This document shows, in pieces, positions 675-58,570 of a DNA stretch of 64,000 nucleotides; within the stretch, counting starts at the first letter, position 1, and every line of letters begins with the position of its first letter. Under the pieces are notes generated by a model. That model saw only the letters and a program-made list of their open reading frames with translations. It searched no databases and was not told the origin of the DNA. The stretch is from Yuukianura sp. NJ FZ-2021. Taxonomy: Eukaryota. The stretch lies in the NCBI GenBank assembly GCA_046563655.1, contig CM102285.1:4216001-4280000 (forward strand). The letters run 5' to 3'. The translations under genes and the position numbers were made by a program.

Positions 675-3600
675 TTAGTCGCTTGACTGGAGAAGATAAT
701 TTAATTGTTGAATGTTGTTTGCAATTATTGCTTTCTGACTCACCCGCAGTTGATTGCATAGGGACTCGCTGAAAGCAAGGTAGATCCATGGATTTGTACA
801 GGAGTTCAGTGACGCCAAGAGCAGCAGGACTACGTTGATTGGTCCAACTGGCATGGCTACAGTGAGCAACAACAAAAGCACATGAGAAAGACGTACGTTT
901 TTACAAGTCTTTTTGTAGTTGCCTTCGTAATTAATGAGCAATTAGTTCACCAAGTGCACCCGTGCGTGTAAGTGGCTCAATTGTGCACATTTATGTGGAG
1001 TAAATAAATAAATGTTCTTAAGAAGAAGCGTTTCGACCTTACTTTGTCTTGGCAAGTTGAAGTAAGTCTTGAACATTTTCTAATTAAACGTTCACACAAC
1101 TTTAATTCCGAAGTAAATAACTTCAGCGGGGTTCATTTTGACAACTTGCTTGAAAAGTTTTTGATAACTTAGGTTAACCTGGGTTAACCTAGGTTGAGAC
1201 TGTTTTTTACCTTTGAAATCAAATTCTTAATAGGAGTCCATGAAGTTTGAGAATTTCGAAACTAAATCAAGAATACCTATCTTTCGTTGAAGACAATTTC
1301 ACCACCAAAAAACAACAGTTTAAACTTACTTGGGTTGTAGACCATGATGAGTTGTGCTATACAAAATGGAGCCCAGCACACGAAGAAACAAATCACGACA
1401 ACGAGTGTCAGCTTCAACGTTTTAACTTTGGCTTGACTTATTTGTCGCTTCAAAGCTCGATAACCAACATCCTGTAGTAAAAGCATAAAAAAATCGAAAT
1501 TGAGTACTGTGTATGCTAGGGTCAACTCTGTAAAAAAAAATTTTGATCCAAATTTCGAAACTTTTGAATCACATTATGGAATATGGAGCAAAAGAATAGT
1601 TTCAATGAATGCAAATCAAGTACAGGAAGCGCGCCAAGTCTTCCGCAATTTTTTTAAATGACAAAATTCCTGTGAAGAGTTTTCTTGAGGATTTTCTATT
1701 GAAATTGGTTTTACTTTGCCTCTAGATCCTGGCGCATTTCCAGTCACTGTAACTCAAATTCTATTATTTGGTTATGAAACGTTAGCTTCCAAAAATGTTT
1801 CAAAAATGTCCTCGGATGAAAAAATTTTGGATGAAAAAATTCTCTTTTGCGAACTTTCTATCTCCAGTTCGGGTTTTATGTGAGACGACGTTATGGGAAT
1901 GAATGAAGCATCGTGAATTTAAAATGTTTTTGTGACATAATTAGAAATTGATGCGGGACGCCAAGAAACTGTTCAAAAAATAATGCTGTGCTGTCTAATA
2001 CGGTCAAAAGAATGCTGCGTTTGTGATTTAAATGTAATACATAGTACCACAAATTCTGTATTTTGTTGAATTTTGCAACACATAGTAGCGACATAAAAAA
2101 AATCTCCACACTGCAAGTGATTTGCACTGAAATTTTAGTACCAATCAATAATAATTTTTTTAATAATTATTAATTTAATATTCTTGATTTCTAAATAATC
2201 TGGTTAAAGGTGATGGTATATGTAAGGTGTACCGCTGTATCTTATCTTTCGATGTTCCTTGACAACAGAATTGTAATTGTAATTTGTACAACTTGCAACA
2301 GGTAGTCTGGTAACTTGGGAATTGCAAACATCGTTCCTCAAGCAATTTTTGGAAACAAATATCGCCAAACAGTGAAGCCGTTATATAGCATTTGAATGTC
2401 GAATTTAATTAACTCTGAAGTACTGAGTTACCCGAATCTGTAATTAGTTTCGGGATCACTCCTCCTTCATGTTCTAATTAATTATTTAATTACAGCGTCT
2501 AGCCTACTTTCAAGGTTGGTAAACAAGCTCATTGTTGACCCCTACATCAGGTTATTCAATAACTCGACGTTTTTGAATTTTGTTAAATAATTTACAAAAT
2601 TTGCTTCGCCATGCATTTCTATGGTAATGATTTGTGTGTAATGTAACGGAATTGGTGCCCAAATTGGTGCTAAGGTTGGTTTCACTCAATTTTTATGAAA
2701 CTCGGAGGTATTGAACAACCTCTTGTAGCAAATACAATTTGGTTACTATAGCAACCTTGCTTATTGCTTTCGAATAAAAACACATGAAACCATTACATAG
2801 TTAGAAAGTTGCCCTTAGCAACAAAACCTTGTTGTTCCATATTTTACGGCTTGACAAGTTAATTAACTGAAACTATTAATTAAAATCCAAAGGAGGCGTT
2901 ACCCTTAAAGCTAATTGCATGTTCGAATTCAGCATCTCAAAGTTAATTAAGTTCGGCATTCAAAAATCGGAAATTGCGCCGTTTTATGGTGTAAAAGCTA
3001 TTGGACAATCTGGTGTAGGAAAACTTTTTTTTATGAACCTTGATAGCTTTAGAATAGTATTATGACTGGAAGCCTTTTCTGGGGGAACATCCACCGCATC
3101 AACACAATTGAGTTACCTTGTGGAGTGGCGTTAGAGTGCTTTCCATTGTTTCTGAGTCCGTTTTCATCGATGAAGATGAAAACGAAGTCTTTCTGCTGAA
3201 GCGACCAAAGCCATTGGAGGTTCCCTTGGATTTCAATCTCCCGCTGTGCTCTGCAGTGCTGGTGTTACGGTTTCCAGTGCTGCTGGGCAAAGAGAACCTC
3301 ACGACTTTAAAACAAATGGCTCCGTAGCTGAGTCCAACGAGAACGAGCGGTAAGATGAAAACTGATCCTACGAACCAGGTCACGTAGGCTTGTGCCCATG
3401 AAGTACTCAAGAAGGTCCAACAATCCATCACTCCCGGCTGAAAAGATTCATATACAAAATGGCACTTTAGTACATTAATTTCTCCAAAAAGCGATTCTTT
3501 TTGGCACGAGAATCAATGTGTTTTACTCAAAATTTCGAGTGAGCAGAGGATGAATTGACTATTGTAGAACCTATTTTAAAAATGCTGGTTTGTAAAGTTT

Positions 3601-6340
3601 TGCTTATGTAAAAAAAGAGAATTGGATAAAATGAAAAATAGTTGTGCCAAATTTTTACCAACCTAAAATTCTTTGTCTCAAAGGTGTTACAAAAGCATTG
3701 ATCCATTCACGTGTGATGCAATACAATCATGGAAACTGTCAAGTGTGTTGAATTTGATTAATAATTCTCCCATTGCCATTTTTTTTACCATTACATACTT
3801 TTCAAACTTCAAAATTCTTGTTACCACAGCAAACATGGAACTGTCTAAATAAGTTTAGGTTAACTGCATATGTGTACGCCGCGAAGCAAAGGAAATAGAA
3901 ATTTCAACTTTGCAACTTTCATAAAACTTTTTTTTTCAACTTTTGAAAATTCGCTCCTACTTTACAACTATGGAATTCTAAATTACCACAAAAATTTCTG
4001 TTACCGATTCAAAAGATTTCTGAATTAACAAAATTTATGTGAAGCACTACGCGATGACTTTCTTCGTGACTTTGACAAGTATACATACAAATACACTAAA
4101 AGTTGACTTCATAGACGTTGAAAGTGAAAATGAAGCGAGCGCATGTAAAAGGTTACCTTAACTTCAGATAGACTGAAAATGACAGCCTGTGGGCTTGCAA
4201 AGAGGAAGGACAGAATCCAAGAAATGAGGACCATTAGCTTTGGGACTCTGAGGCCTCCATGGTGATTCCTCGTGAAGGTTTGGTGACAAATTACCATGTA
4301 GCGGTCAACTGCCATGGACGTCAAGACGTAAGTCGACAGGTAGAGGACGAAGATCTGAAGAAACTTGATGACCCGACACAGTGAATCCGGACCCTGCACG
4401 AGCGTTCCTCAGTAAATATCAGAAGGTAATAGAACATACGTGTCAAATTCTAAAAGTGAAAGTGTTCAGCGAGAACGCTGTCATTTCTGTGGTACCCCAA
4501 CACCCCCTCATTCTGTCGTTTGATTCGGATGTGAGACAAAAAAAAAATGAAATAACAAAAAGTTCATTTCTTATTAAGAAAAATTGAATGCCTTCGTGGA
4601 AAAAGAGTTAAACTCGTTTCAGATTTTTAAAACATTTTTAAACATTTGTTTATAAGTGCGTTAATTCTAATGCCAGATTTTCGGTTGCCCGGAGAAACCA
4701 AAATTCTAAAACGAGTTTAACCCTTTTTCCACGAAGGCATTCAATTAAGCATGTGAATTTAATTTTTACGACAAACCAAGGTTAAGGTTCAGGTTTTTCC
4801 AATCGATTCTTTCAAATTCTTTGACGGAATTTTGAAGGAAATTCTCGTCCTTGTATTTTGCCACTCACCACCAAAACGACAGATAACGCGCGCGGTATAC
4901 GCGATATGTAATCAAAGATGTAAGAATTTTAGGTATCGTATAAGTTTTTTTTTGCCAGTGCCGCTTGAACCAAACCGGTAGTAAACATATGTATCGATGT
5001 CCCGCAATGGCTGTAAAGTAAGTTAAAGTAAGCATCCGTCAGAGGGAACAAATTCGGCAAAACGGCGCCTTGATTTTCTGCGATTAAAATATGGTGTTAC
5101 AACAATTTTTGTACCTTTTACTTGAAATTTTTTGCAATTTTTGCGTGTAGATTCTGAATCTGAAATAAGTTTTCGGCGGTCACACCTCCAATCACAAATT
5201 GCCATTGTTAATTAGAATTCATTAATCAATCTTACCAAGAAGGACGTGTGACCGCCGAAAAAAGATTTCTGATTCGCAATCTACACCCAGAAATTGATAT
5301 CAAATGATATTTTAATCGAAAAAAATCGAAGCGCCATATTGCCGAATCTAAGCTCGTCAGAGTAAGTGAATTATAGAGTAGGTGTCCATAAACGACTGTC
5401 CATAGGTGACGATTCGTTAGTGAACGTCTATTGGCTACTGTCGACCGTTCGCTTATGATCAGTCACAACTCGCTGTTCATTTGTGACAGTTCGTATGTGA
5501 CCGTCCACTAGGATATCGCTCCATAAGTAACCAAGCTTGTTTAACTCGAAATTTTGTTTATTTTTGCTTATAAGGTTATGTCAAAACTCCTGTTTTCTTG
5601 ATTTTAAATTTTTTGAATCACATGGGTAGCGCTACCCTAACACGCTTCCGTTGCGTTAGCAATTCGAAATCAAAACTAAAGATTCCTATAGCAAAGCGTA
5701 AGAAAAAAAACCAATGTTTTTGGTGAGACAACAAAATTCGTATGAAATTCGTACCAAAGTTGTTTTTTCGTGTTTTTTTTTTAAATCGGAGTTATGACAA
5801 AACCTCTTAAGCCATTTGTATAAATGGTTGCTATAGCAACCTTGATAAGCAACTGTTCATCCTTCAACAGAGTCTGGGAATCTCAAGCGTTAAGGATGCT
5901 TGTTAGCGTGAGATAGTTTCAAGGTGAGATTAATGGAGGTACACCATTTTGAAAAAAATATGTTTTCCAAGGAAAAAAATTACAATTTAAAAACTCACAG
6001 TTTAGATTATATATCAACTTGAAAACTGTGTTACCTTGAATCGGAATGTAATATCCCACGCCAGTTGTGGTAGGATGTTACCAAATGCTACCAGTAGGTC
6101 AGTGATGCTCAAGTTGAGCATGAAAAAATACATTCTCGACATTGGACGGAACTTTAGCTGTCGACGGAGAGCGATGAGCATGAGGCCATTACCCGCAATT
6201 GCCAAAAACAGTATTATGGACAGAACCAAAATTTCGATTTTGGCCAAGCTCTCATTTCGAAAGTCCTCGATGGCTTCTTTGCGACTGGAATTTGACCTTA
6301 GGTCAATCTCTATTTCTGAGTGATTTGACATCGACCTCAT
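675..6340 (-). CDS. Vasopressin/oxytocin (inotocin)-type neuropeptide GPCR, multi-exon
   Basis: GT-AG exons with consistent phase: 6340-6035 (RNESLAKIEILVL...SRMYFFMLNLSITDLLVAFGNILPQLAWDITFRFK), 4393-4157 (GPDSLCRVIK...SMAVDRYMVIC), 3437-3117 (DCW...YVTW), 1471-1330 (ISQAKVKTLKLT...CWAPF), 856-743 (LLLLASLNSCTNPWIY). These are signature motifs of the vasopressin/oxytocin receptor family. The final C-terminal exon is unresolved, so the low coordinate is approximate. Confidence 0.92.
2541..2728. mobile_element. Degenerate MITE in a receptor intron
   Basis: Imperfect terminal inverted repeats: CTACATCAGGTTATTCAATAACTCG ... CGGAGGTATTGAACAACCTCTTGTAG. Confidence 0.45.
4586..4742. mobile_element. 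MITE with ~40 bp near-perfect TIRs, flanked by AATT
   Basis: GAATGCCTTCGTGGAAAAAGAGTTAAACTCGTTT ... AAACGAGTTTAACCCTTTTTCCACGAAGGCATTC, with AATT on both sides. Confidence 0.75.
5050..5352. mobile_element. Degenerate foldback/MITE element
   Basis: Long imperfect inverted repeat. Outer arms: AATTCGGCAAAACGGCGCCTTGATTTTCTGCGATTAAAATAT vs ATATTTTAATCGAAAAAAATCGAAGCGCCATATTGCCGAAT. Inner arms: TTTCGGCGGTCACAC vs GTGTGACCGCCGAAA. Confidence 0.6.
5566..5812. mobile_element. MITE with ~30 bp imperfect TIRs
   Basis: GCTTATAAGGTTATGTCAAAACTCC ... GGAGTTATGACAAAACCTCTTAAGC. Confidence 0.55.
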
Positions 6341-9451: not shown

Positions 9452-12400
9452 GTGTTAGATTTTTTAAAGTTCGCAATACTGAGTACATCTCGAGGATTTT
9501 TATTAATTTCTTTTACATTGGTTTTTGATTTTCGCTCAATTATTTTTTGCTATCAGGGGTCAATGTAGGCTTCAGAATTTGGAGAATATAGTATTTAATT
9601 TTTTACAACTAATAAACTAAAGTAACGTAATTGGGTCACAAGAAAATTTTCAGATCGTTTTCATTTTTCAAATTGTCGTTTTGTGTGATTTGCGGTTTAA
9701 CGATCTTGAGGCAGAGCGTTCAGATTTTTTGCGCAAAATTTACATGTCACATTTGAAATGAAGTGATGATTATGATGATAAAATAATGATATTGATCTTT
9801 AGTGATAGAAAAAAGACTTACCAAATTCTGCGACTTTTTGAGACATTTGCTTTAAGAACTTCTCTTGTATTAAGACTGATATACCGAATTGTTTTCATTG
9901 GCAACTGAGCAATGCTGTCAGTGCCAACGCGTTAATCCCAATGGAGTTCTCTTTCAGAATGTTTTATTCGCAGTACATACTTTAAAATGTCTTTTGAAGC
10001 AGGTGAAAGATACGAGTCAGGCGTCCGTGAATAGCCGTGAATGCGAAGCGACAGTAGCACTACTGGGACTTTCACTCGCGCTTCCCTAAGATGATCCGAG
10101 TTGAACTGCAGATTCATGAATGGTTCCTGCAAACCTTCAGTTAGGGAATTTAGCCTATTTCCATCCTTTTCACTTGCGCTTTCACGACTTTCTTCCAATC
10201 AAGCGAAAGAAGCCCTTCATTGCCTCCAACAAAAGCACATCTAATGGCTACTTTTTCTTGTCCATAGATACTTTTCAACTTTCTCACAAAGTTACAATCT
10301 CTGCACACTTCCCGCACTCACTCATACAGCATTCTGAGAAACTTATCAATATGGTCAAAAAAAACCTCATCACAGTTTCATAGTTAGAAACGTAATCGAA
10401 ATAAAGTTCTGTGTCAACGAACCATGCCACACAAAAAGTCGTAAACATTGCTGGCAGATCCTGTGAAAGGTTAGGTGTAGTTCTCTCTGTCAGTATGTAT
10501 AGCACTGAACACAGTCTTCTAGAAAATTATTCCTGTACTATTCAATAGACATTGTAAAACCGGCTTTAGTATTCGCTACAATGATAAATAATTGTAGGCT
10601 TTGTTTTATTATCTATATTTGACCACTTTGAAACGGATTTTTTTTGGAGTTGACCGTTTGTAGTTGACATTTTTGAGTGAAAAGGCAGACGCTTTTTTAT
10701 TTCTGTATCGACTACACTATTCCATAATATCATCCATGTGACAGACGTTTAAATGTGCCAATTTTCCAGGAGACTATTCGAATGCCTCACGCATTGTCTG
10801 AAGGTAATTTTGTCTCGTTATCCTTCTATTGAAAACTGTCACAAACGAAAATTGTCGAATAGTTCTTGAGACTGAAGTTCCTCCAGTTTGTTATAGTAAT
10901 TCAGTAGAGAATAGCAGAAGTTGTATATATAATGTCGTTGCCTTTAACGGGATACTTTAAATCTAAGCCTGGAAAATTGTCTTCGGCAGAAACAGTGTTA
11001 CCCTGCTCAATACTTCTGGATGTGGACATAAATGACACGCTACAAAGGAAGTATTGCCTTAAAAGACTAGAATGCAGTTTTTCAAAAAGCACTGCGCATA
11101 TTTTAAATAGTAGTAATTAATAAACCTGTTGTAAACCAGATCCTATGAAAGTAGGAAAAGATTGAGCTGCATTCGGGAACGGATTCTCACAGCGGAACAT
11201 CATCTTGAACCATAATGTACATACAATCGTTATGAATGATAAAAATAAAGAAGTTGACCTTTTACACAAAAAGGATGACCAGCAGGGATGACATTCAATA
11301 TAGTGACAAGTATACAAAAAAATTAAAATTATTTGTTGGTTGTGTTGTGTCAAAGATTTCAAGAGGAAACAAATTGACAGCGCATAAATATTCAGTCGAG
11401 GAAATTCATCTCAACCGTAATTTCCCAATCATGCCCTAAGAATGGGTTAAGAATCCGAAAATCAATCTAACTATCTAATGACAATGAGGCACACAAACAC
11501 AATGACTTACCTGTAAGCTGCTATTATATAGTAAATATATACCGAATGCCGGTAAAGATTTTTGATATGTAAATAAATTTTATACCACTGTCATACTGTA
11601 TTTACGAAAAACTACCCTATTTGCAGATTGGCTATGATTTCGGCTTATTCTAAGGTTCAGAAACATTCGGCACTATGCCCCGGTTGGGCCTAACCTAAAG
11701 TTAGTCGAGTTGATACAAAAATCATTCCCAGTGTGTGCACTTAATTTGCCAACGGATGGTTCCCAAGATTACAAAAATAATCAACACTTTGCCCCAGCAC
11801 TTCAACTTCTTCGGATGCGGCGGTTTGAGGAAATGCTGGAAGTACTCCATTTGGAAGAAGTGGAGCAAGAAGATGAATCAGACATTAACATGAGAGAAAG
11901 CGATGACGAAGGAGCTAGATTTTTAAGTATTATTGAGTTATCGAAAAATAAAAGTTTGTCTCTAATAGTAGCGTAGCGCGTCCCAAAGCTCGAAAAATAA
12001 TTATTAGCGCGCGCTTCTCATAGAACATTTACGGTAAGTTGTTTGGAGCAGAGTTTTAGGAACTCCAAGACGCTAAATCATCTAATTACATATGATTGAA
12101 GTCGCTTTGATCAACTAAAAATTTAATTACCTTAATTCGAAATTTGAATCCTTTGTTCCAATTCCAAACTTTATATTTCTCCTAGATATTTTGCCAGTTT
12201 AGTAGGTCAAAAATAACCCGGTGGACTTTGATCTGCCACTCCATTTTCATTTCACTTTTAAACTTTTATTTCCCTTTCCGCCAATTTTCCCTTTTATAAA
12301 ATTAAAATTATGACTCGCAGTGCCAGAACTTTTATAATTATAAAAGTTTCTTTGGTAAACAAGTATTTATGAAAAAGTTTATAAGAGTTGTGTTGCTAGC

Positions 12401-12773
12401 TGTTGTTGCGTTCCTTGGTTTGTGTTGACAGACAGACCGACGTACAAAGGGTTTGTGTCATAATGTAGCAGTTAAGTTTAGCAACACTTAGTAACCAAAA
12501 GTGGTCGACCGGAGTTTCGGAAAATAAATTGAACGGTGGTAGTTTGGTTCCAATATAGTCTTTGTTCTCAAAAATTGCAATGTAAATATAATACAGAGTA
12601 TCAACATTATTTGCAACATTAAATTTTTAAAATGCCTCTACCTTGAGCTACCCTTTCCAACTTATGCTTCTTTTTTTACAACAGAATAAAGTTTTGTGCA
12701 TACCGAGTTCAGAGTCCTGGTGGAGCGAGGAACCACTTTATTACATTAATCAAATAATTTGTGTGTTAATAAA

Positions 12774-14156
12774 ATGAAGTTCATTAGTACCAAAATTTCA
12801 CGACTTCTAGGAGCTACTACAAAGTACTCCACGTTATACAATTCCCTTCCTTTTTTATGGAACGAAGATACAAATCAGCTCGTTCAGCAGCCTAGAAAAA
12901 ACAAAATTCTTTGGTTACTTTATGTCCAAGTTCTTTTTATTCATCAGTTATATTTGACTTGGTGTTTAATCAACACAATTTGTCATTTCAAAAACTATAA
13001 AATTACATACCATGTTCTCCAAACTACATTGTTTATAGAACAACTCATGGCAGTGGCGACACAGCTATGCATTCTCCAAAATCACCAAAATTTCATCTTA
13101 TTTTCAAACAGGAGTTTTCACTTTTTTGATCAAATTCAAAGTAGTATTATTCATTTTGAATCAAGATTTCATGACTTTTTGTTTGAAATTAGTATACAAC
13201 ATCATGCATTTTCTTTTATATTTCAGAGACGTATGTCAACTGTACCGCGAATTCCCCCAAATGGCAATCTGACCTTGAACTTCTCTTTTCAATGTGTTTG
13301 CCATTAGTCGTCACTGGACCAATTCTTATCACTTTCCTTATTTTCCAATTCCCTGAGCTGGATTTTTTACTCACAAATAATTTGCCAAACTCCTTTCACC
13401 CCGCAGTTAAAACTATGATGTCGATAATCATTAACTTTTATTTACATTCCTCAATTACTTCAACCGTTCTGGCACAAGGATTCATACATGCTACTTGGGT
13501 CTTTTCAGTTGTTTTCATTATAAAGGAAATCAAGTAAGTGCAAAACTGCTTTTTTGAATCAACACAATATTTTGCCAACATTTTTTGAAGAAACCGTTGA
13601 AAGTGTTGAAGAAATGTATCGGTATTGCATTACATCCTATTTTTTTAGCATAAAAATGGAAACAAGTCCATATACTAAACAAACAATGCGTAGTCCACTT
13701 TCAATATTTCGGACGTATAGAAACCTGCAGTTGCTTACCAGCCACTACGAATCAATCTTTGGTGACTGGCTGCTTTGGACAATGAACGACTGCATGATCG
13801 TCTTGACAGTTCTGTCCAACTTCATAATCGTGAGACACCACCGCACGAGCCCTTTTCAAACGATACTGTTCATACTGGCATCGGTCACTGGGACTACATA
13901 CTTAGTCCTAACTTACATAAAATATGGCGAGTTCAATGAACTTTCCAACAAGGCTCTGGGGAGTCTGAGAAGACGTAAAACGCATTTTCACGGCATGGAA
14001 CGACAACTAATCGGGATGTTCGTTAAATCCGCCCCGCCACTCAAAATCCATTTGGGGTCATTCGGATACTATCGGAAGCCGAATACGATTCGAATCGTCG
14101 GCAAACTCTTTGTGTACACTATGAAGTTCTTGGTTCTCACAAAGCGACTAATGTAG
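12774..14156 (+). CDS. Divergent multi-pass chemoreceptor-like (gustatory/odorant receptor superfamily-like) protein, 3 exons
   Basis: Exons 12774-13140, 13227-13533, 13649-14156 with GT-AG introns; several hydrophobic helices; C-terminal YRNLQLL...KSAPPLKIHLGSFGYY...TM pattern resembling hexapod 7TM chemoreceptors. Confidence 0.6.
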
Positions 14157-15304
14157 AAATCTAGATGAATTAAGCTCTAAATTTTATGTTGCACTTGAAA
14201 CTTGAGTACGAAATGTAGTAAAAGCAGGGAAAGGTATGTTCAACTCGGAGGTTTACCTGAATTTAAATTTAAATTCCTATATTAAACCTAATTTACAGTA
14301 GGTGTGAGAATATACCCGGGCGGACCACTACATGTTCAATTGGACAAGAAGCACAATTTACTTCTGTAATTTTGAAAATGCACTTCCATTCAAAATTTAT
14401 GCCCTCTGTTAGCTTAAAAAATTTTATGTATTTGGTCTCTGTCGTAATTTTGACAAAGGTTTTCTTCTTTTTTCTGATTATTTTTGGATGGGTTAATAAA
14501 TATAATTTTTTATTACTTTCACTCGGACGATGCCTATATTGTGCGGGAACAATGGCGACGGATGGATTCGTGAAAATGGCATACACAACAGGTTTGTGGA
14601 AATAATAGTAACCACTTTCACAAAATTAATTTTTCTAAAAGTGCAAAAACAAAATGAAACCCCCGGATCTTAACTAATCTAATCGGGTTGTAGTTGTAGT
14701 TTCTAGTTACCCGTCGTTCTATTTTATTTTTTAATTTTGTTTTACGATAGCACTGTAGTACTGATCAGTTAGTTTTATTTAACAAGATTCTTCATAACTC
14801 CTCTTGCGAAGTTAGTTAACTTTCCAGCCTCATGTCGTGATGAGTTCATTTTCCACGTTTTCGCAGAATCGTATGTCCGCAAACCCTGGATTTTGATATT
14901 CGATAACAACAGATTAGGTTTTTCAGTAAACAAACACGAAAAAAAAATAGAAAGGCTTTTCGCTCTTTGGAGCATTTGAATTCAACAAGTATAGCAAATT
15001 ACCTCATCTGCCAATTTAGTCTGCAAAAAAAAACAAATGAGCTTAGGGGAAATGCGGTTTGTCCTCTTCCTCAGAATTTTGGATGAGTCATGTAATATTT
15101 TTTCCTGTGAAATACATGTACAATTCTGAACAACAAAACAACGTTTTTGCTTTCAGTCGTTTATCTGACGAACACGTATTATTAGCAGAAGCTCTCTCCA
15201 ATTCTAAATCAGTTTGATTTTATCCAACACGACGACAACAACTATTCAACTACTTCTCAACTTTTTTTGAAACCTAAAATTTAGAAAACGCCGAATATTT
15301 CAAA

Positions 15305-17647
15305 ATGAACACCGATCCACTACCGCCACCAGAATCCTTCATTTGTCCTATCACTCTCGTTGTGATGAAGGAACCAGTGTGTGACAAGGAAGGAAATTCA
15401 TTTGAACGGAGCGCCATAACGGAGTGGATTGGACGCCATGGCTGTTCCCCAATAACACGAAGTCCCATGACCTTGGAAGACTTGATTCCAAACAGAGCGC
15501 TTAAAACCATGATCGAAGAACATTATCAATGTCCTCAAGTCCCATTTCAATGTCAAGGTGGCGGTCAACCGGAGGTGAGTGAAAGGTCAAGGTCACTCAC
15601 TGGCAACACTCAAGAAAATTCCAAACTGTCAATCACAACGGTTCTGCAAAACTCGAAGGTGCTGGTTACAATCAATCCTGGAGATTCCTTAGTCAGGTCA
15701 CCTGTGAACGTCGCCTGTGTCATTGACATCTCCGGGTAAGCGATTTACCAGGTTATACTTTTGCTGTAAAACACGAGACTAATGATTTTTTTTACCTCAA
15801 GGTCAATGGGAACAGAAGCCCAAGTCCCTGGTGACACTTCAGGAAAGGAAGCTTGTGGCCTAAATATTCTAGATGTGGTGAAACACGCCGTTGTGACGAT
15901 CATCAAGTCATTAACTGCGCAGGATTCTCTCGCAATTGTCGCTTTCTCTACTTCCGCTGAAGTCGTTTTACCACTAACAAAAATGGACCTCGCCGGACAA
16001 ACATTGGCAATAAGCAACGTCAATTCCCTTCAACCGACAAACAGTACAAACCTTTGGGCAGGACTTGAAAAAGGGCTGGATGTTTTGGTTGAAGTGAACA
16101 AGATGACTGCTGGTTCAATTTCAACCGTTTTGCTGTTTACTGATGGTGAACCCAATGTCATACCACCAAGAGGGCACATCCCTATGCTCCAGATGTACAA
16201 GGACAGTCATGGAGGTGTGTTGCCCGGACTTGTCAACACTTTTGGATTTGGATACGGACTGGACAGTCAACTATTGTATGACCTTGCGCGAGAAGGCAAT
16301 GGCATCTACGGATTCATTCCAGACAGCGGAATGGTTGGAACCATTTTTGTCAACGCCGTGGCAAATTTGATTTCTACGGTGGCAACAGATTGTCAGCTGA
16401 CAATTGAACCAGTAGGGGGCGCCACCATTGTTAATCCAGCATCAACCCTGAGGCAATATTTGGTTACAGAAGGAAAATGGGGCGTATTGGCCAACGTCGG
16501 CTCTATACAAGCTGGACAATCGAAGGATATTGTCTTGGAGTTTCAAAATTTGCCGCCAGAAGGAACAGAATTCATGCGCATAACTCTTGGAGCTAAAACC
16601 AGAAGCTATCCAACTTTCAAGCTTTCTATGACCTGCAACGTTGAAAACTATCAATCACAAATGCCTCACCCGAAACTTCTGCATGCGGCTGAGCGTTTCA
16701 AACTTATCGGCGTCATTCAGTCTGTCATGAACATCATGAAGGACGCAACGGGTGACCCAGAAAAAATAAAAGATGCGTCGCAGCTCGTTACCGCGGCAAT
16801 TCAAGCGACAAAAGCGGCTTGTGGTGGGTCAGAAATGCCACTTGAGGTGACTGCACTCATTGCTGATCTTGAAGGTCAAGTACTCGAGAGTTTACAACCA
16901 GCATATTACACAAAATGGGGACGCCACTATCTACCATCTCTGATGATGGCTCATCTGTACCAAGTTTGCAACAATTTTAAAGATCCCGGACCACAAGTCT
17001 ATGGCGGTTCGCTGTTCAAAAAGCTACGGGATGAAGCTGACACGCTCTTTCTTTCCCTTCCACCACCAAAACCTTCAATCAAAAGAGCTACAAACCAACC
17101 CGTGAACATGAGTCGGTACTACAACTCCCGTGGAGTTTGTTTCCATGGAGACAATCAATTGCAGATGGGTGACGGTGGAATGAAGGCGGTTGATGCCGTA
17201 CGCAAAGGTGACAAAGTAAAATCAGCGAATGGACAAATCACTGAAGTCGTTTGTGTTGTCCAGACAATCACAGGAGAAGAAGAGCATGACCTTGTACATT
17301 GTCCTCAGTCAGGGTTGCTAGTCACGCCGTGGCATCCAATTCGTGAGGTCAAAGGTCAATGGCTGTTTCCTATTACATTGGATCTACCACGCAAGGTCGA
17401 ATGCAAAGTTCTCTACAATTTTGTTCTGAATGGTGGTCACGTCGTCGAAATCAACGGCATGGAATGCACAACACTTGGCCATTCTTTCACTGACGAAATC
17501 TGTGCACACGAATACTTTGGAAGTGATTTGGTAGTCAAAGATTTGCAGAACATGGAGGGCTATGAACAGGGGGTTGTAAAAGTGAGCGGGGTAATTCGAA
17601 ATTCGAAAACACACCGAATTGTTGGGCTTATTCAACACGAAGAATAG
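15305..17647 (+). CDS. U-box + von Willebrand A + Vwaint + Hint (Vint-type) domain protein, 758 aa, 2 exons
   Basis: U-box PPESFICPITLVVMKEPV...FERSAITEWI...SPITRSPM...LIPNRALK. The vWA MIDAS motif DISGSM is restored by splicing intron 15736-15801, followed by TNLWAGL, LFTDGEPN, TFGFG. Vwaint-like KWGRHYLPSL..AH..Q.CNNFKDPG. Hint domain from Cys at 17138 (CFHGD...LLVTPWHPI...LYNFVL...TLGH). Confidence 0.9.
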
Positions 17648-18512
17648 GAAAACCTTTTAGCATCCTGAATGTGTATATTCAGTAAAAGTACCAGTTACTG
17701 TATTTTGAAATTGAGAAATGCTTTACAATTATGAAAAGAATTAGTTCACATTAAAACTTAACATCGTTTGGAAACATATGGAACGTTTGCTTTTTCTAAA
17801 GAATTTGAAATACCAAATAATATGTTAATAAATTCACATGTCAAGCAATACAACGTCGTAGAAGCTAAAATTCAGCCACGTAAACCTTGAGTGCTCGCAT
17901 TTTTGATAGATTTGTAATGAAGTTACTTAGTTGGTTCCAGGGCATCGCCGACAATCCATCATTAGCCTTAGTAGCATTTTTCATCGGTATTTTGACCTGC
18001 TGGTTTTCTATCCTTCTGCTTTTTTAAACCAAGTTTGGACCTCTTTTTTAAACTCGAGTTAAAAACGGAAAGCTTTTATGAAAAAGGGGAAAGAATTGAG
18101 AACTTTTTCTAAAAAACGACACAATAGTATACAATACAACAGTTACCTCTCCACCAATACACCTTTGTTTCGTACATTTACGTTTTAACCTTCATTTTTG
18201 TGTCTTATTTTTATCTCGATAAATACGAAAAGATAATCCCTTTTTTTCTGTCCGAAAAAACTTTTCCACTCACTAACTGCATGCATTGTTGCTTTTTTCT
18301 TTCAGTTACAATTCAGCAGTCGAGGGAAGTTGACGAGCTTATACAGTAATTCTTGTCGTTCGAAACCAGTCGTTTCGCAGTCGTTATCTCATATTAAAGC
18401 TGTTTTCAATCAAAACTGTAAACTTTAAATAACACAGTGTTATTACTTAAAACGTGAACTGCGAAAACAGCAGGTGATGAAACTTGTTAAAACATAACTT
18501 CCACGAGAAATC

Positions 18513-21500
18513 ATGTTAGCACTTCCGTCATCGAGTCGGTGCCCTCCACGTCCCCGAGGAGTCAACCTCAAGGAGGAAGTTAGAAAAAATCTATTCCAAG
18601 AAGGTAACGTTTTCTTGTCGTTTCACATAAATTTTCACCTAAGTTTTCTTATATGAAGGGCGTATTTTCAATTTTGAAAGTTTAGTTTTGAAGTTTAGTT
18701 TTGAAACCTTCTTTTTGAAATTTTAGTGCGAACGTGTGGCAGGCGTGACGCCACGTTGACGGACGAGCTGAAAGCGGCTCTGCTGGGGTTGGATGAGGTC
18801 GATCGGAAGGAAATTGTGAATTAACAAGATGAGGATGACTGTACTCCGCTGTTCCTTGCTGCAAGGATGGGCAACATTGCAGTGGCACAGTTTTTAGTCG
18901 AAGACTGCAAAGCTGACCTTGAGGTCAAAGGAACGTTGGACACATTTTCAGAATCTAGACCACATACGGTACGATCATAAAATAATTACTCTTATCTTTG
19001 TAATTACTAATTACAAAAGTATTTCGAAAGTAATTACAATCTTTTGTAAGTTCGAAGTAATAAAATATAAGTTTTAAATAATAAGTTGGTTTGAAAATTT
19101 TGAATTTCAAATTTAACGGCAAGTTTTTGTTTGTTTTTAGGCTAAGCTGTTGTGGGTCGCAAGTGTCTACGGAGGCCTTAAAATGGTGCAATACCTACTC
19201 ACTCAGTCAAGGAGCTGATGTGAACACTGTATGTTCAAAAGTTAAAGTTAGCTTAAAAACGTTTTTCAGTTTTGAAAATTTCAAAATTTTGAATTTTTTA
19301 AATTTGCAGACAAGCGATAGTCGGTCAACTCCTGTTCGATCGGCTTGTTTCATGAGCAACAAGCTGGTGGTTCAATCTCTTGTTGAAACAGGAGCAGATA
19401 TTAGAATCACAAACCAATGTGGTAAGGTTAGCGTTAGTTAAAACTGGGAAAAGTATTTCTAAAGTTACAAAAAATTATAGTTAATTACTTAAACTTAAGT
19501 AATTAGTAATTCAATTGAATTTAATGCTCGTAAGGTGGATCTTGTCTTACCAATGCGGTCCAGTGCTTGGAATTGCTGAAGTATCTTTTGGACCTTCGAT
19601 TTGAAGTAGATGTAAACGGAAATGTAAGTTTAAAAAATCGTGAAATTGATTGATTTTGAAATAATAAACGATTTTGAAATTTTACAAAAATAGTTGTTGT
19701 TTTTTTTGCAGCTTCGAATTGACATAAACGGAAAGGTAACTTTCTTTAAAAAATGCAAAATCAAAACGACAAATGATTTTGAATTTTTAGTAAAGTTTGA
19801 ATTTTTTTTTTCAGTATAAAATGGACGCGAACGGACAGGTAACTTTTTTGGTTAAAAAAAAATCGTGAAACAAGAAATGATTTTGAAATTTTAAATATAT
19901 TTTTTTCAATTTAGGATTACGAAGGCAATACTGCCCTACACTACGCAGTGCTTGAGCGTCGCCTAGAGGCAACGAAACTTCTGGTTGAAAAGGGTGCCAA
20001 CATTTTCCTTTCAAACATCTTTGGACCAAATGCTCTCCAATTGGCCGCGCACAAGGTAAACAGCTTCCAATACTGCTTTTCTGAAAATCTCTGTTTCTTT
20101 TTATAATTGAGTTAACTTTTTTGCTAATGTTTTGCAGGGTGACTCCAAAATCGTCGAGTACCTGCAAACAACTACTCAGGTGCAGCCTAAAGATGAAGCA
20201 AATTTGTTGGAAATGATGGGTGTAAGTGCAATGTCCGACGGGTACAGCGGTGATACACAAAGTTTTGGAGCAGTTCAAAAAAGCCGCTGAAATTCGAGAG
20301 CGCGAAGGAATTCAAAAACCGCTGCGCGGCTACTATCCGCCTTACGCCTGTCTCACTGAGACAGGCGTAAGGCGCAACGACCGGTGAGTTGAGAGCAACT
20401 ACCGGTGAGTTTTAACATGTATTTTGCACGAGCGTGAATTCATAACGCGCTGTAGGTTGGAGTGACTACTCCTCACAATCCTGAATTCACAGAGATTTAC
20501 TTTTCGTAGAAAATACTTGACAATTTTTAGCAAATACTTTTAGCAAAAGTTGATTCTCGTTTTTTCTGAATTCTAGGCGAAGTTTTTTCTCGGATCCAGG
20601 AGCACACGACTGTTGCGGAATGGTAAGCACTGTTGGACAATCAGAACCAACGCCGCAAAAATGACCACCTTCAAATTCAGCAATTGTTGATCTCTGAACG
20701 CCAACTCGGAGTTTTCCATAAAGATTTGTTGAAAAAGTTGGACAAATGTACCAAGGATCTTGAAATGGCACTTGACAACTTTTTCTACCAAGAAGCCATC
20801 AAGTACTACGCTCTCTCTCTTCATTGTCACAAAGAACAAAATGGTCTCTTGTATTGCAATGCAGCAAAAGCACTGCAAAGTTTGGTAGGAACATCGTGTT
20901 TATTAAGTCTTAGAAATTTTGAACCTTAATTTATAAAATTTTGAACTTTTCAAGTTGAGGTTTACATGGCTTGGTACCACCATCGGAAGAAAATGGAGCA
21001 CGATGGATTTGATTTCGTCGCTTGTCCGTATGGGTTGTTGATGAAGACTTTCGGATTTCTGCTGGAACGTCTTCCAGAAGTTGTGCATCAACTCAAACTG
21101 AAACCATTTTTGCCAAGCGACAGAACATGCCATGACGTGTAAGATTTAAAAAAATTATGAAAATTTTCATGAATTTTGTGTTTTGAATTACAGAGTATTA
21201 AAAAGTTTTGATTTCCGATTGAACTTTTCAATTTTTTTCCAGGTATATTTTGGCTTGCGGTAAAATTATTTACTTGCTCCTCAGCGATCCAAGGTCAACT
21301 GAAGAATTGAGGGAGATATGCAAAGTAATGGTTTGCGAATTTTGAATTTTGCTTTTGAAAATCTACAACAAAAATTTCTTTTCTGAAAAGGGCATTAGAG
21401 ATATTGCGTCTTATGCTCTTCCTGTATTTTCTACTGGAGACACTTTGCTTCATCTGGCCACTAGGAGATTTGGAGATTCCAAAAGAGACTCATTGGTAAA

Positions 21501-22087
21501 CCTAAAAAAAATTGCATCTTTTTTTACATTTTGAACATTTCTAAATTTGAAACTTTTTCTCACCTTATTAGATTGCTAACCTGCACTACGTTCAATTCTT
21601 GTTACAATTCGGAGCTGACGTGAACGCAGTCAATGTTTACGGAGAAACCCCTCTTCATGTTCTCCTCAAAGATAAAAATTATGAAGAGCATGAGGTCAGT
21701 TGTTAAACCAATTTGAGAAATGTTTCAAAATGGTCAAAACCAAGATCAGAATTTTCAAAATCTTATTTCTTTTATTAGGTTTCTGAACTAGTGAAGGCCG
21801 GGGCTCATTTGGACCATTACGACGACTATAATTTTTCTCCACTTCAAAAGCTGCTGGAAAAACCTTATCCAGGGTTTCAAACTAATCCGCTGCTGATTCT
21901 GCAATGCATAACTGCGAAGTTCTTGGGCCAGTTCGCTCTGTCGTTGGTCGGCACTTGGTCGCTTTGGTCATTCGTCATGCCAAGGTCGACACTTGCGCCA
22001 GAGAGAAACACAAACTCTACGAGAAGTTGTATCACTACGATCCTTAAATTCAAATTGTCCCGCCAATCGGACTTGCAGCCTTACCAT
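18513..22087 (+). pseudogene. Fem-1-like ankyrin-repeat gene, disrupted
   Basis: Ankyrin exons: CTPLFLAARMGNIAVAQFLV, STPVRSACFM, GNTALHYAV, GDTLLHLA, GETPLHVL, GAHLD; C-terminal LQCITAKFL resembles the Fem-1 box. Lesions: in-frame TAA at 18822-18824, 4-bp duplication (ACTCACTC, ~19197-19204) causing a frameshift, inverted duplication at 20338-20374, and a Polinton inserted at the 3' end. Confidence 0.75.
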
Positions 22088-23925
22088 AGTAGTAAGATAG
22101 TGAAGAACTCCGCATCACTAATTTTAGCACCTTCGTAGGGGTTAGAGTCTGGCCGGACACACTACTAGTAAATACAGGGGGAGGGGGGGGGGGGGGGAGG
22201 AATGACAAAATAAGGAAATATCAAAAACAAAAATGTCGACAAAAAATGTCGATAACAAAAAAGTCGACAACGAGTCAAAAAACAAGTAATTAAATTTGTG
22301 TATAGAAATTACGAACATTGACTCTAGCCTCGTGTCCAAGTGCTCGCAACTACTTTTCAGCGGTTGCCAGATCGAATCTCAAACAGTTTAAAGCTTATGA
22401 TGGAGAAGTTACAAGTACTTAGATACAACACTGGGGTGAATGTTATTACTATTTTTAAATTTTTTAGTTAAGGATTAAAAAAAAGTCCTTGGAGAAATGT
22501 CTTTTCACAAGGAAAACGTTTTTGAAAATTATTTTAAAAAAAGTTCTTGAAGGTTCTTTTCTATAGAAAGACGTTTTTCTTAAAAAGTTCTTTTCAAAAT
22601 AACATTTCTTTAGAAAGAAACTTTTTTGAAATGTTTCAAAATAGCATTTCAAACCGTGTTGCGAGTGGCGCTTAAACAGTGAGTTTTGAAACTAGAAATC
22701 ATCAGTTCTAAAATATTTCAGAACTAATAATTAATATTAGTCGAAACTATTCGTCCTCCAAGGCTATTCTCAAGAGATGGAAGAGGTAAAGCATGAAATT
22801 GCTCTCCGGGTTAGATGTATTTCATGGGAAAGGCGTCCAGAAAAGTGTCAGGATTTTATATAAGTGCAATATATACTCGGGATTTTATATACTCGTCAGC
22901 GTTTAAAATCTATGAAGAGTACAAAGCGCTTCCAGTTACCCAGCTTTGTGATCACAGTCGCTGCAACTACAGCTGTGAATACGCATACTAGATTGAAAAA
23001 CGGTTTGGAAATGGGGTATTTAAATCGGTTGATTTGTACTCAGCTTCGGCAAGGTGATACGTCCTGCCGGTTGATGTGCTTGGAACAGGGCAAATACAGA
23101 GAATATCGCTGATTGGAACCCAACCCTCCTCGACAGCGTCAGACCATCCGAACGAATTTGCCACCTTGGTTCCTCTCCGCATAAACCTTATGAAAACCTT
23201 ATCCTCTTGTGCCGATTCGTCCTCTTCAATCACGCCAATGTGCCACGAGGTGTTCACGATGGAGGCCACATGCTTCCCTACCTAGTACCGCGGTTGCGGT
23301 TCTGTGGCACCTCCAACTTCCCTGCTAACCTTGTAGCGTCTCGCACCGCTACTCTCCAGAAATATGGCCGCAGCTACGCCCTCAGACTCTCATCACTGAT
23401 CAGCAGATCCAACAACTAACCAAAAGACCAAAAAACTCGCCAGATCTAACGACATCGCTGACATAAATATATAAATATATATTCATGAAGCATAAAAATG
23501 ATCATTGAAAAATACAATATAAACACAAACTACTCATCTCCCACTGATCTCTATCCCAGCAACGCACAAAACAGACTGAATCTGAAACTATATAGAAATC
23601 TTATCCTGGTCTCTCACCTCGCCTCTCTTCAAATCTCCCGCAATCCACATCCTCATCTCATCTTACCTCAACATAATCTCTACACTACGCTAACGGATGA
23701 GCAGGCGTCTCAACCTTTGCCATGGTGAAATCAGTTGCTGATGAGTATCGCTGTACTGCAATTTCGTTGCGCTCCAGTGGAATAAATGAGTGGAAACTAC
23801 GCGCCCCTTTTATCGTATCTGCATTGTCGTACATGTATTTAACGTGCAGATTAATATGCTACCAAAAAGTTTATGGTCAGAAAATGTTACTACTTACCTC
23901 TTCTCACTTACTTCCCGCCGGCTTG

Positions 23926-45871: not shown

Positions 45872-46437
45872 ATGAACATTCCAAAAGCGTTGGTTTTCGC
45901 GTATGTTGCTGGAGTATGGTGCACCGGTAAGATAAATAACATTAACACCTAACATTCTTAAATACTGTTATAACTACTGGATTTTAGATTACACGGCATA
46001 GAATACATTTCGACTTTTGCTGATGCTGTTCCTCACGTTTGCGTACATATTCTTTTGTAGGTGCTCAGTCTCAACCACGAGACAATCTCACTATAACGAT
46101 AACCCACCACAAACGTGGACATTGTAATGGAGAAGTGGAACTGTTTTGTCATCCTACTGGCGGGACACATCCAAGACCTACTGAAGCATGCGCAAAACTC
46201 GATGAACTTGCAGAGACGAGAGAAAACTTTGCGCCACACAACGAGCAAGAGATTTGCACTATGCAGTACGGTGGACCTCAACGGGCTACAATCACGGGAA
46301 CCTGGCGAGGATACCATGTCAATAGAGGATTTGACAGAACTAATGGATGTGGGATTCGTGAGTATGACAAATTCGCAGTTGTTCTGGACATCAAAGGCTG
46401 CTCTAGTTTTAAAGGTTTCAAAGGTTCTGGACATTAA
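45872..46437 (+). CDS. Secreted subtilisin-inhibitor-like (SSI family) protein, 143 aa, 2 exons
   Basis: Signal-peptide exon 45872-45926; intron 45927-46060; SSI motifs LTITI...LFCHPTGGTHPRPTEACAKL...CTMQYGGP..ATITGTWRG..V...F...NGC. Confidence 0.85.
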
Positions 46438-56848: not shown

Positions 56849-57619
56849 GTTAATTTTTTTTTATTTTTGAATTTTTAAATATTTAGTTTACTAATAAAAC
56901 TATACCGATGCAGTGAATTTTAATTCCACAGATTAGAGGAAAACGAGAGAATAAAATTTTTGGCTTCCTAATTCAAGAAATGTAATGTTGCATTTCTTCG
57001 TTTTACTTGTTTTGTAAACGATTACGCTAAAAATTAAATTTAACACGAGTTTTATTCATTTATTTTCAGATACCGAAACATTGAGGTTCATATTAATTTA
57101 TTTTATTTCTGTTTTACTTTTAAGTTATGCGGACGTGGCTATATATTTGATGAAATTTTTTTTGCAAATTTTGTTTTCTTGATGTTCTAATTTTATTGGC
57201 TAGTGGTTTGGCTACTGAAATTCTGATTTAAAAAATTTCCAATCCTATCAGTAAAGTGACAAAGAGATGATGTAAGGTGGGCTGGCTACTGCCTCCGATA
57301 TCGATTAAAAATTCTTATTGATTTGTTCATGTACTATGTAGGTATTTACGTTTTGCCCAACAACGTGTTTCCGCCAATCCCTCGTGACGTGGGTGTGGTA
57401 AAATATTTTTGTGTGGCACCTTGCACGGGTTAATTTCTCAAAACTAATATTTTATCAACAAAAAATATTGGCAGGACATGACGAAGCGACGAAAACTGCG
57501 AGATGGGTAGATGTGGATTCGTCTGGACAAGCTGAATTCGTGTAAGTTCAAAATTTACTATTTTTGAAATAATACGGACTCAGTTTATTTTTGAATTGAT
57601 TTGTACTTTATTTTAGGCA

Positions 57620-58570
57620 ATGAAGCTCTCCAAAAATGTAACGCTGGTGAGATTACGTCGCTTGAGTCTTGGAATCTTGATTGTTATCTGCATTGGTACT
57701 TGGATCATATATTCCCGTCAAGTGAATCGCTTTGCAGTGGACAAAAACATTGACGTGTCCAAATACACGCTGGATGGACAGATTCTAAACATTCCGTCGT
57801 GGATCTTCGAGGGGCGTTGGGGAATCTCGAAGCTTAAAATTGATCTCACGGAGGAGGATTTTAAAATCCAGGCAGGAGCAGCTGATAAAGAAGAAGAATA
57901 CTCCTGGAGAAACTTCTTCAGCGATACAACCAATGGACTGATGCTGGAACTTGGAGCTGTTGATGGAAAAATGTACAGCGTTAGCAAGTTTTATGAAGAA
58001 AAGGCAGGATGGAAATCGATTCTGATTGAAGCAAGTCCAGAAGCACGGAAAATCCCGAAGAATCGTCCGAACGCTCTCAGTTTTCAGCTAGCAATATGTG
58101 AGAAGAGGTCCATAATCCACTTTGCGCATGGACAAGAAGTCGGTGGAATTCTGGAATTCATGTCACCAGAGTTCGTTCGAGAGTTCCATTCTTCACTGCT
58201 AAAGGACAACTTGGGACCAAGTGACACTAAAGTGGTTGACATGGTGGATTGGGACAAAGTACGCGATTCGGTTCAAGTCGCTGAACAACCTTGCCTTACT
58301 CTGCAAAGTGTCTTGGATCGCTTTCTAATAACACATATTAATTTTATGGTTCTGGATCTCGAAGGAGGGGAGTTGTCTGCCCTTAAATCACTGGATTTCA
58401 GTAAGATTAAATTTGATGTAATGTGCGTAGAAACAAATCGATTTGGTAATGCAAATGATCCGTACATTGATCAAGTTGTAAAATACCTTACAGGGAAAGG
58501 TTACAAGTTATTCGACCGAATAAGCGGACGAAATTCTTGGTTTGTTTCTCCAGCTTGGCAGAAACCGTAA
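57620..58570 (+). CDS. Type II membrane FkbM/Methyltransf_21-family protein (Star-like)
   Basis: N-terminal TM; GLMLELGAVDG..YSVS..YE...GWKSILIEASP; CLTLQSVL; HINFMVLDLEGGELSALKSLDF...FDVMCVE; uninterrupted CDS. Confidence 0.85.
   Translation: MKLSKNVTLVRLRRLSLGILIVICIGTWIIYSRQVNRFAVDKNIDVSKYTLDGQILNIPSWIFEGRWGISKLKIDLTEEDFKIQAGAADKEEEYSWRNFFSDTTNGLMLELGAVDGKMYSVSKFYEEKAGWKSILIEASPEARKIPKNRPNALSFQLAICEKRSIIHFAHGQEVGGILEFMSPEFVREFHSSLLKDNLGPSDTKVVDMVDWDKVRDSVQVAEQPCLTLQSVLDRFLITHINFMVLDLEGGELSALKSLDFSKIKFDVMCVETNRFGNANDPYIDQVVKYLTGKGYKLFDRISGRNSWFVSPAWQKP

Follow-up and report, generated by a model that had tools for sequence, protein, structure and literature searches.

Here we describe an intact gene for a predicted self-cleaving, cytosolic U-box protein in a 64,000-nucleotide stretch of the Yuukianura sp. 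NJ FZ-2021 assembly (GCA_046563655.1, contig CM102285.1, positions 4,216,001 to 4,280,000 of the forward strand). We refer to this whole stretch as the window and count all positions within it. The gene lies on the + strand at 15305-17647 and encodes a U-box, a von Willebrand factor A (vWA) domain, a Vwaint region and a C-terminal Vint domain of the Hedgehog/intein (HINT) fold. We read it as an intact gene of a springtail-like hexapod that is apparently transcribed and spliced, encodes a self-cleaving cytosolic member of the VWA-Vwaint-Vint family and most likely stems from an old transfer, and we give this reading as a whole a probability of about 0.72. The sequence features that an earlier, sequence-only reading of this DNA had named were confirmed where it had placed them, far above chance.

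Two open frames of the gene join as 758 codons once 66 bases are removed, giving a spliced coding sequence of 2277 nt (758 aa) with zero internal stops. The coding part of exon 1 (431 nt, 15305-15735) begins with the ATG at 15305 and specifies aa 1-143 plus 2 nt of codon 144; that of exon 2 (15802-17647) specifies aa 144-758 and ends with a TAG stop at 17645-17647. Between them lies a phase-2 spliceosomal intron with GT..AG borders (15736-15801, 66 nt, GC 33%) whose ends read GTAAGC...CTCAAG. If left unspliced, the frame meets an immediate stop, the TAA at 15737-15739. The intron falls inside the Gly codon of the metal ion-dependent adhesion site (MIDAS) of the vWA domain, such that the motif DISGSM (aa 141-146) straddles the exon junction, with its Gly codon split GG/G, and is formed by removal of the intron, as had been claimed. 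Homologues align without gaps through ...VIDxSGSM..., which supports the splice join. In haplotypes of one sample and in a second study, the intron interior (15742-15794) was replaced or shortened with joints at 15742/15794 and 15743/15793, while both exons were kept.

Transcript-like contigs from the public run X1 extend the gene on both sides, with a 5' untranslated region reaching back to 15229 (15229-15304; X1 record 1 covers 15229-15441) and a 3' untranslated region reaching 17744 (17648-17744; X1 record 6 covers 17060-17744). Polyadenylation-type hexamers follow downstream of the coding sequence, ATTAAA at 17750 and AATAAA at 17827. The 29 letters that precede 15229 in the X1 contig had no match across the 64-kb window at up to 3 mismatches, and no AG stands before 15229; a 5' exon within the window is therefore unsupported. 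A remote 5' exon, an added leader sequence or an artefact of the contig might account for these letters.

Pfam searches and translation bore out the proposed order of domains in the spliced frame. The U-box (aa 9-73, 15329-15523) matched PF04564 with an E value of 9.6e-17 over profile positions 2-67 of 73, scoring 61.4 bits against a cut-off of 21.4 when the exon-1 product was searched. It aligns with the U-boxes of the family members P0009, P0022 and P0040, and the family profile matches the solved U-boxes of LubX, PUB12 and CHIP at 1e-11 to 7.5e-19. The vWA domain (15704-16372), which is split by the intron, has the MIDAS residues D141, S143, S145, Thr226 and Asp258, and these columns are invariant or nearly so in an alignment (A1) of the window protein with 36 relatives. 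Its exon-2 part matched VWA_3 (6.4e-9), VWA (1.2e-8) and VWA_2 (1.4e-8), all above the cut-offs. An all-beta region follows (16376-16639, exon-2 residues 192-279), and then a helical region (exon-2 residues 290-418) that contains Vwaint (16847-17044; PF14624, E 7.3e-27, 93.8 bits against a cut-off of 23.5). The N-terminus, MNTDPLPPPESF, leads directly into the U-box, and the maximum 19-residue Kyte-Doolittle mean of the protein is 1.56; by hydropathy alone, no signal-peptide-like N-terminus was found, in agreement with the earlier claim that the protein lacks one.

The Vint domain (17135-17626) matched PF14623 with an E value of 8.8e-39 over the entire profile (positions 1-166 of 166) and stops 6 residues short of the end of the protein. 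Its first Cys, Cys590 (codon 17138-17140; C446 in exon-2 numbering), stands in the context GVCFHG and is the predicted nucleophile, with a predicted scissile bond between Val589 and Cys590. HINT motif B is present as TPWH (aa 652-655, 17324-17335). The sequence-only reading had noted that both elements are retained; we found Cys590, Thr652, His655 and Pro656 (the last three being T508, H511 and P512 in exon-2 numbering) invariant in 37 of 37 aligned sequences, namely the window protein and its 36 relatives, which are 38-54% identical. Two further His (aa 704 and 713) are also invariant, and two Cys (aa 628 and 699) nearly so (window ~17252-17509; C484, C555, H560 and H569 in exon-2 numbering). 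These extra Cys/His pairs may form a metal or ligand site.

An AlphaFold model built on the 37-row alignment reached a mean predicted local distance difference test (pLDDT) value of 86.7, with the Vint part mostly at 85-97. It shows, in order, the vWA part (residues 1-190) as a Rossmann-like alternation of strands and helices, the strands of the all-beta region, the helical region and, beyond a disordered linker at exon-2 residues 430-443, a C-terminal domain rich in beta strands. In Foldseek searches, the vWA and beta regions together resembled vWA-plus-beta-sandwich proteins (4fx5, ArnB, ITIH1 and Sec23/24). The top match was 8R2C, the crystal structure of a Tetrahymena thermophila Vint domain (E 5.5e-17, target template modelling (TM) score 0.91, root-mean-square deviation 2.0 A, 37% identity; sequence match E 1.5e-29). 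The matches to 8R2C and to the bacterial intein-like (BIL) domain BIL2 (6y75) place the C-terminal domain in the HINT fold.

These features suggest how the protein might work. The N-terminal U-box would recruit a ubiquitin-charged E2 enzyme, and the vWA domain, with its complete MIDAS, would bind a partner or substrate together with the beta and helical Vwaint parts. Cys590, aided by Thr652 and His655, would attack the carbonyl of Val589 and convert the Val589-Cys590 peptide bond into a thioester, which water or another nucleophile would then resolve. Cleavage would yield a 589-residue U-box-VWA-Vwaint fragment and a 169-residue Vint fragment, and the freed 589-aa part would act as a U-box ligase that binds through a metal-dependent vWA module. 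As the Vint match extends to aa 752 of 758 and leaves no C-extein, protein splicing is impossible and only cleavage can be expected. Autocleavage and ligase activity of the window protein are both inferred here, and the domesticated role and the ligation to a nucleophile proposed in the sequence-only reading likewise derive from what is known of the family.

The protein belongs to a large and already described family. Of 8000 candidates scored with the exon-2 protein, 1638 were relatives at E<=0.001, and many of the 120 best matches listed combine U-box, vWA, Vwaint and Vint; when 1.84 billion representatives were searched exhaustively, 1787 reached E<=1e-30. In the available part of the original description (Bürglin 2008, BMC Genomics 9:127, PMC2362128), the family is defined by a vWA domain, the then-new Vwaint and a Vint-type HINT domain with motifs A and B; four members have a U-box ahead of vWA, and a signal peptide is absent. 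The window protein shows all of this, with an N-terminal vWA domain, a middle Vwaint, a C-terminal Vint with Cys and TxxH, and no signal peptide. Judged by its sequence, the gene is a further member of the VWA-Vwaint-Vint family in an unexpected host, and neither architecture nor mechanism is new. The novelty suggested earlier was thus overstated, as the architecture was described in 2008 (PMC2362128, same part), is common in public data and includes a Vint domain of solved structure (8R2C). The host is what stands out: the same part of that paper describes Vint as wide but patchy in eukaryotes and apparently lacking in Metazoa, which agrees with the earlier remark that the family is unusual for animals.

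The literature searched contained no mention of Vint in arthropods. What we found on Vint was the 2008 description, with one solved domain in the PDB, and papers on Vwaint dealt mostly with plant RING or kinase fusions. In all but one of the supplementary files of the Folsomia candida genome paper, the terms Vint, Vwaint, Hint, von Willebrand, U-box and VWA occurred zero times, and all but one of those of the Orchesella cincta genome paper held no Vint or Vwaint. The latter list a vWA entry, Ocin01_02808, with a Capsaspora vWA protein as best match, which is at most a candidate family member.

The surroundings of the gene are those of an arthropod chromosome, as the sequence-only reading had stated. 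The window also carries plexin exons (Sema, PSI, TIG), an exon of a rhodopsin-type receptor (7tm_1), that is, a G protein-coupled receptor, and a gene for a mitochondrial leucyl-tRNA synthetase (LeuRS), and the U-box gene sits between these. The best named matches of a LeuRS exon are Orchesella dallaii (49%), Folsomia candida (50%) and O. cincta (49%), with insects at ~36-46%. Residues 39-868 of F. candida LeuRS can be placed on the window as 8 pieces, with gaps of 79-185 nt from one to the next. These matches and short gaps indicate that the host is a springtail-like hexapod with short introns, which the 66-nt intron fits. Codon composition is similar as well: GC content at third codon positions (GC3) is 0.43 in the gene and 0.39 in pooled host plexin and LeuRS frames (individual range 0.28-0.44), and relative synonymous codon usage correlates between the gene and host exons with r=0.74. 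The gene is present once in the 64-kb window, and no second copy was found there. Around it we found no transposon-like, direct or inverted flanking repeats, only short AT-rich matches of 71-95%.

Five public sequencing runs contain the gene; four derive from a single sample (organism A) and the fifth from a different study (organism B). Contigs of X1, X2, X3 and X5, the last being the independent run from organism B, were aligned on 11000-23000 in 30 bins. X2 and X3 covered 30 of 30 bins with continuous depth. Contigs of X5 span 14945-15402 and 17505-17823, and one of X2 spans 17386-18370; as these bridge both gene ends into the flanks, the gene is joined to its neighbours in two studies, in support of the earlier claim that it is embedded in an arthropod chromosome. 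The gene is real and intact and resides in host DNA.

A different pattern was seen for X1, which covers 14 of 30 bins, all on predicted exons of either the gene (15229-17744) or the downstream gene, and which shows a poly-A loose end at 22210 on this downstream neighbour. One X1 contig joins 15734/5 to 15801/2 and omits exactly 66 nt with GT..AG ends, in keeping with the predicted junction at 15735/15802. X1 therein resembles a transcriptome, and the gene is likely expressed and spliced.

We next placed the protein in a maximum-likelihood tree of 61 rows. It is sister to a tight clade, P0001-P0008 (SH-like approximate likelihood ratio test, SH-aLRT, 99), whose members share 65-82% identity among themselves and 48-54% with the window protein and are its sole close relatives. 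Next outward are P0022 and P0040 (JGI), followed by a group of the chytrid Rhizophlyctis rosea, the heterolobosean Acrasis kona, P0009 and P0016. Homologues from a rotifer (Didymodactylos) and a sponge (Oopsacas) sit elsewhere in the tree, and forcing the window clade to group with them made the tree 118.8 log-likelihood units worse, which the approximately unbiased (AU) test rejected (p=2e-8). No named arthropod appeared among the 120 best matches listed, though three annotated Collembola turned up by name when LeuRS was searched. Since the U-box aligns well with those of the family and it is the vWA domain that the intron interrupts, the fusion was inherited whole rather than built in the host; since codon use and intron size are host-like, any transfer must be old. 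An old transfer from a microbial eukaryote into the hexapod lineage, followed by gain of a host-type intron and host-like codon use, is a plausible account of these results. The earlier proposal of horizontal acquisition is thus plausible rather than established, as P0001-P0008 may be other springtails or the donor group.

One member of this clade, P0008, differs from the others. Its U-box is precisely missing, with MSTI joined to the post-U-box linker, and MIDAS and other conserved residues are changed (TDG to TYG, STN to GAN and a conserved Cys to Ser). By these changes, P0008 looks like a decaying or specialised paralogue.

Three other origins have to be weighed against an old transfer. The strongest is that the gene was retained vertically from a Vint gene of the eukaryote ancestor and lost in almost all other animals, with no transfer at all. 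Bürglin preferred multiple independent losses as the best explanation of the patchy Vint spread (PMC2362128, in the part available), and a sponge and a rotifer carry family members too. The fully host-like GC3, codon use and intron size fit such a gene, as does the distance to P0001-P0008, which at 48-54% identity is close to that between the LeuRS of the window and those of Collembola (49-50%) and would suit orthologues in related animals. However, vertical retention would call for a great number of separate losses among animals, the window clade stands apart from the rotifer and sponge sequences, its named tree neighbours are a chytrid and a heterolobosean, and no arthropod is named among the best matches listed. 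We therefore regard transfer as somewhat more likely and retention as possible but the less probable of the two. A second origin, arrival within a Nucleocytoviricota insertion, is suggested by giant-virus relatives: although a viral scan with the single window protein found nothing, an alignment-based scan showed that 46 of 71 candidate IMG/VR loci (L001-L046), many in giant-virus metagenome-assembled genome (GVMAG) bins, encode full-length vWA-Vwaint-Vint relatives, and Atlas clusters that are 91% viral exist. Yet the viral relatives are 27-38% identical, compared with 42-54% for cellular matches, and are therefore too distant to support a viral origin; the Atlas listing gives only the vWA, Vwaint and Vint families for the viral clusters; and neither viral genes beside the gene in the window nor flanking repeats were recognised. 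A giant-virus origin is thus highly improbable. Still less probable, and very unlikely in our view, is a contaminant or chimeric assembly in which a protist or fungal gene was wrongly joined to animal DNA. Springtail samples are rich in microbes, and it is protists and fungi that typically carry the family, but the window contains no N, the X5 and X2 contigs link both gene ends to the flanks, depth in X2 and X3 is unbroken over the 30 bins, and the 66-nt intron, GC3 and codon use are like those of host genes.

A rival of another kind concerns function: the Vint domain might no longer cut, leaving an uncleaved 758-aa E3 ligase in which the HINT fold serves as a binding or regulatory module. Ligand-regulated cleavage, reportedly proposed in the paper on 8R2C, would mean that cutting is not constitutive. 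Motifs J, K and L, which come later in the HINT part of Hog domains, are missing from Vint, as stated in the available part of PMC2362128. On the other hand, invariance of Cys590, Thr652 and His655 in 37 of 37 sequences at 38-54% overall identity is hard to explain without catalysis, and variants of the gene are mostly synonymous (18 of the 26 best-supported coding variants among those listed, with 8 not). We consider loss of cleavage doubtful, more so than vertical retention. Several points nonetheless weigh against our overall reading. Cleavage of the window protein is a prediction, and the 18:8 variant count covers the top listed rows, with 549 more rows over 12 kb outside it. The group forced in the AU test was picked after inspection of the tree. 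The absence of a named arthropod is weak evidence, because about a quarter of the database proteins carry names. If P0001-P0008 are springtails, the gene is at least family-wide and vertical within them, whereas protist sequences might instead point to the donor. Finally, X1 is labelled 'DNA?', its kind being guessed, and is available as contigs only; if it is DNA, its intron-less junction would reflect a retrocopy and not mRNA. The contig that crosses the junction extends just 28 nt into exon 1 and shows 15 differences from the window over 472 positions. Because of the guessed kind and the short exon-1 overhang, we grade expression and splicing as likely and not as proven, and the predicted splice junction stands to the extent that one X1 contig crosses it.

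If our reading holds, the gene has several implications. Among the three eukaryotic HINT families (Hog, inteins and Vint), Vint has received the least study, and a conserved, apparently expressed hexapod copy corrects the statement 'absent from Metazoa' for arthropods. It also adds a candidate to the foreign-looking genes of springtails and gives a tractable animal system for asking what role a self-cleaving U-box ligase plays. A more detailed scenario is that a springtail lineage took the self-cleaving U-box E3 from a soil protist or fungus, added the intron and kept the gene under purifying selection, with the thioester being resolved by a small-molecule or protein nucleophile; stated in this full form, it is unlikely. 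Were the capture part true, the window protein would be the first of the Vint family to function in an arthropod, and were a nucleophile other than water used, the protein would couple a cytosolic, Hedgehog-like covalent tagging to ubiquitination.

Three further observations were made elsewhere in the window. A high-copy repeat is suggested at 22228-23000, just downstream of the ankyrin-like neighbour, where the DNA runs show contig depth climbing from about 250 to 1200-4480. An open frame at 46024-46437 (+) matches the subtilisin-inhibitor-like (SSI) domain PF00720 (E 1.4e-13), a family typical of actinomycetes, and could be another gene in the window that looks foreign. At 57617-58570 (+), an uninterrupted 317-aa frame with a hydrophobic N-terminal stretch matches FkbM-type methyltransferases (PF05050, E 5.7e-16); this intron-less gene of a mostly microbial family adjoins intron-rich host genes.

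Compared with known systems, the window protein shares with plant WAV3/WAVH and rice SOR1 an E2-recruiting domain of RING/U-box type followed by vWA and a Vwaint-like region. By their description, the plant proteins are set apart by a RING in place of the U-box and by having neither Vint nor self-cleavage. WAV3 and SOR1 are described, in the portions of the sources available, as E3 ligases that target Aux/IAA proteins, and the available part of Bürglin 2008 (PMC2362128) names At5g60710, with an upstream RING finger and weak Vwaint similarity, as the best-matching vWA protein. Inteins and BIL domains have the HINT fold in common with the window protein (Tetrahymena BIL2, 6y75: E 1.6e-6, target TM 0.58). 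In contrast to inteins, the window protein has no C-extein and no terminal His-Asn plus nucleophile, but ends in ...GLIQHEE.

In Hedgehog autoprocessing, a Cys and a TPxH motif drive an N-to-S acyl shift that severs the N-terminal part. The window protein resembles the Hedgehog Hog/Hint domain in its domain-initial Cys in a G/V-CF context and in its TPxH motif. It differs in that the Pfam Hint profile PF01079 scored 18.2 bits against a cut-off of 29.7 and matched at positions 10-49 of 213 only, and in that Hog proteins are secreted whereas the window protein is cytosolic. No sterol-recognition part was identified in the window protein; with this, the sub-threshold Hog score and the missing motifs J, K and L (the last according to the available part of PMC2362128), a cholesterol-type adduct is unsupported. 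Closer is the Tetrahymena thermophila Vint domain 8R2C, which has the same fold and family as the window Vint and aligns with it over 170 columns; the crystallised chain is an isolated domain of a ciliate protein and has Ala at the position of Cys590. The paper on this structure (2024) reportedly proposes ligand-regulated cleavage. Closest are the protist and fungal VWA-Vwaint-Vint proteins, which have the domain order U-box, vWA, Vwaint and C-terminal Vint in common with the window protein, along with the same invariant Cys and TxxH and the lack of a signal peptide (36 aligned members, 38-54% identical). From these, the window protein is distinguished by its hexapod host, the host-type 66-nt intron in its MIDAS and its separate clade.

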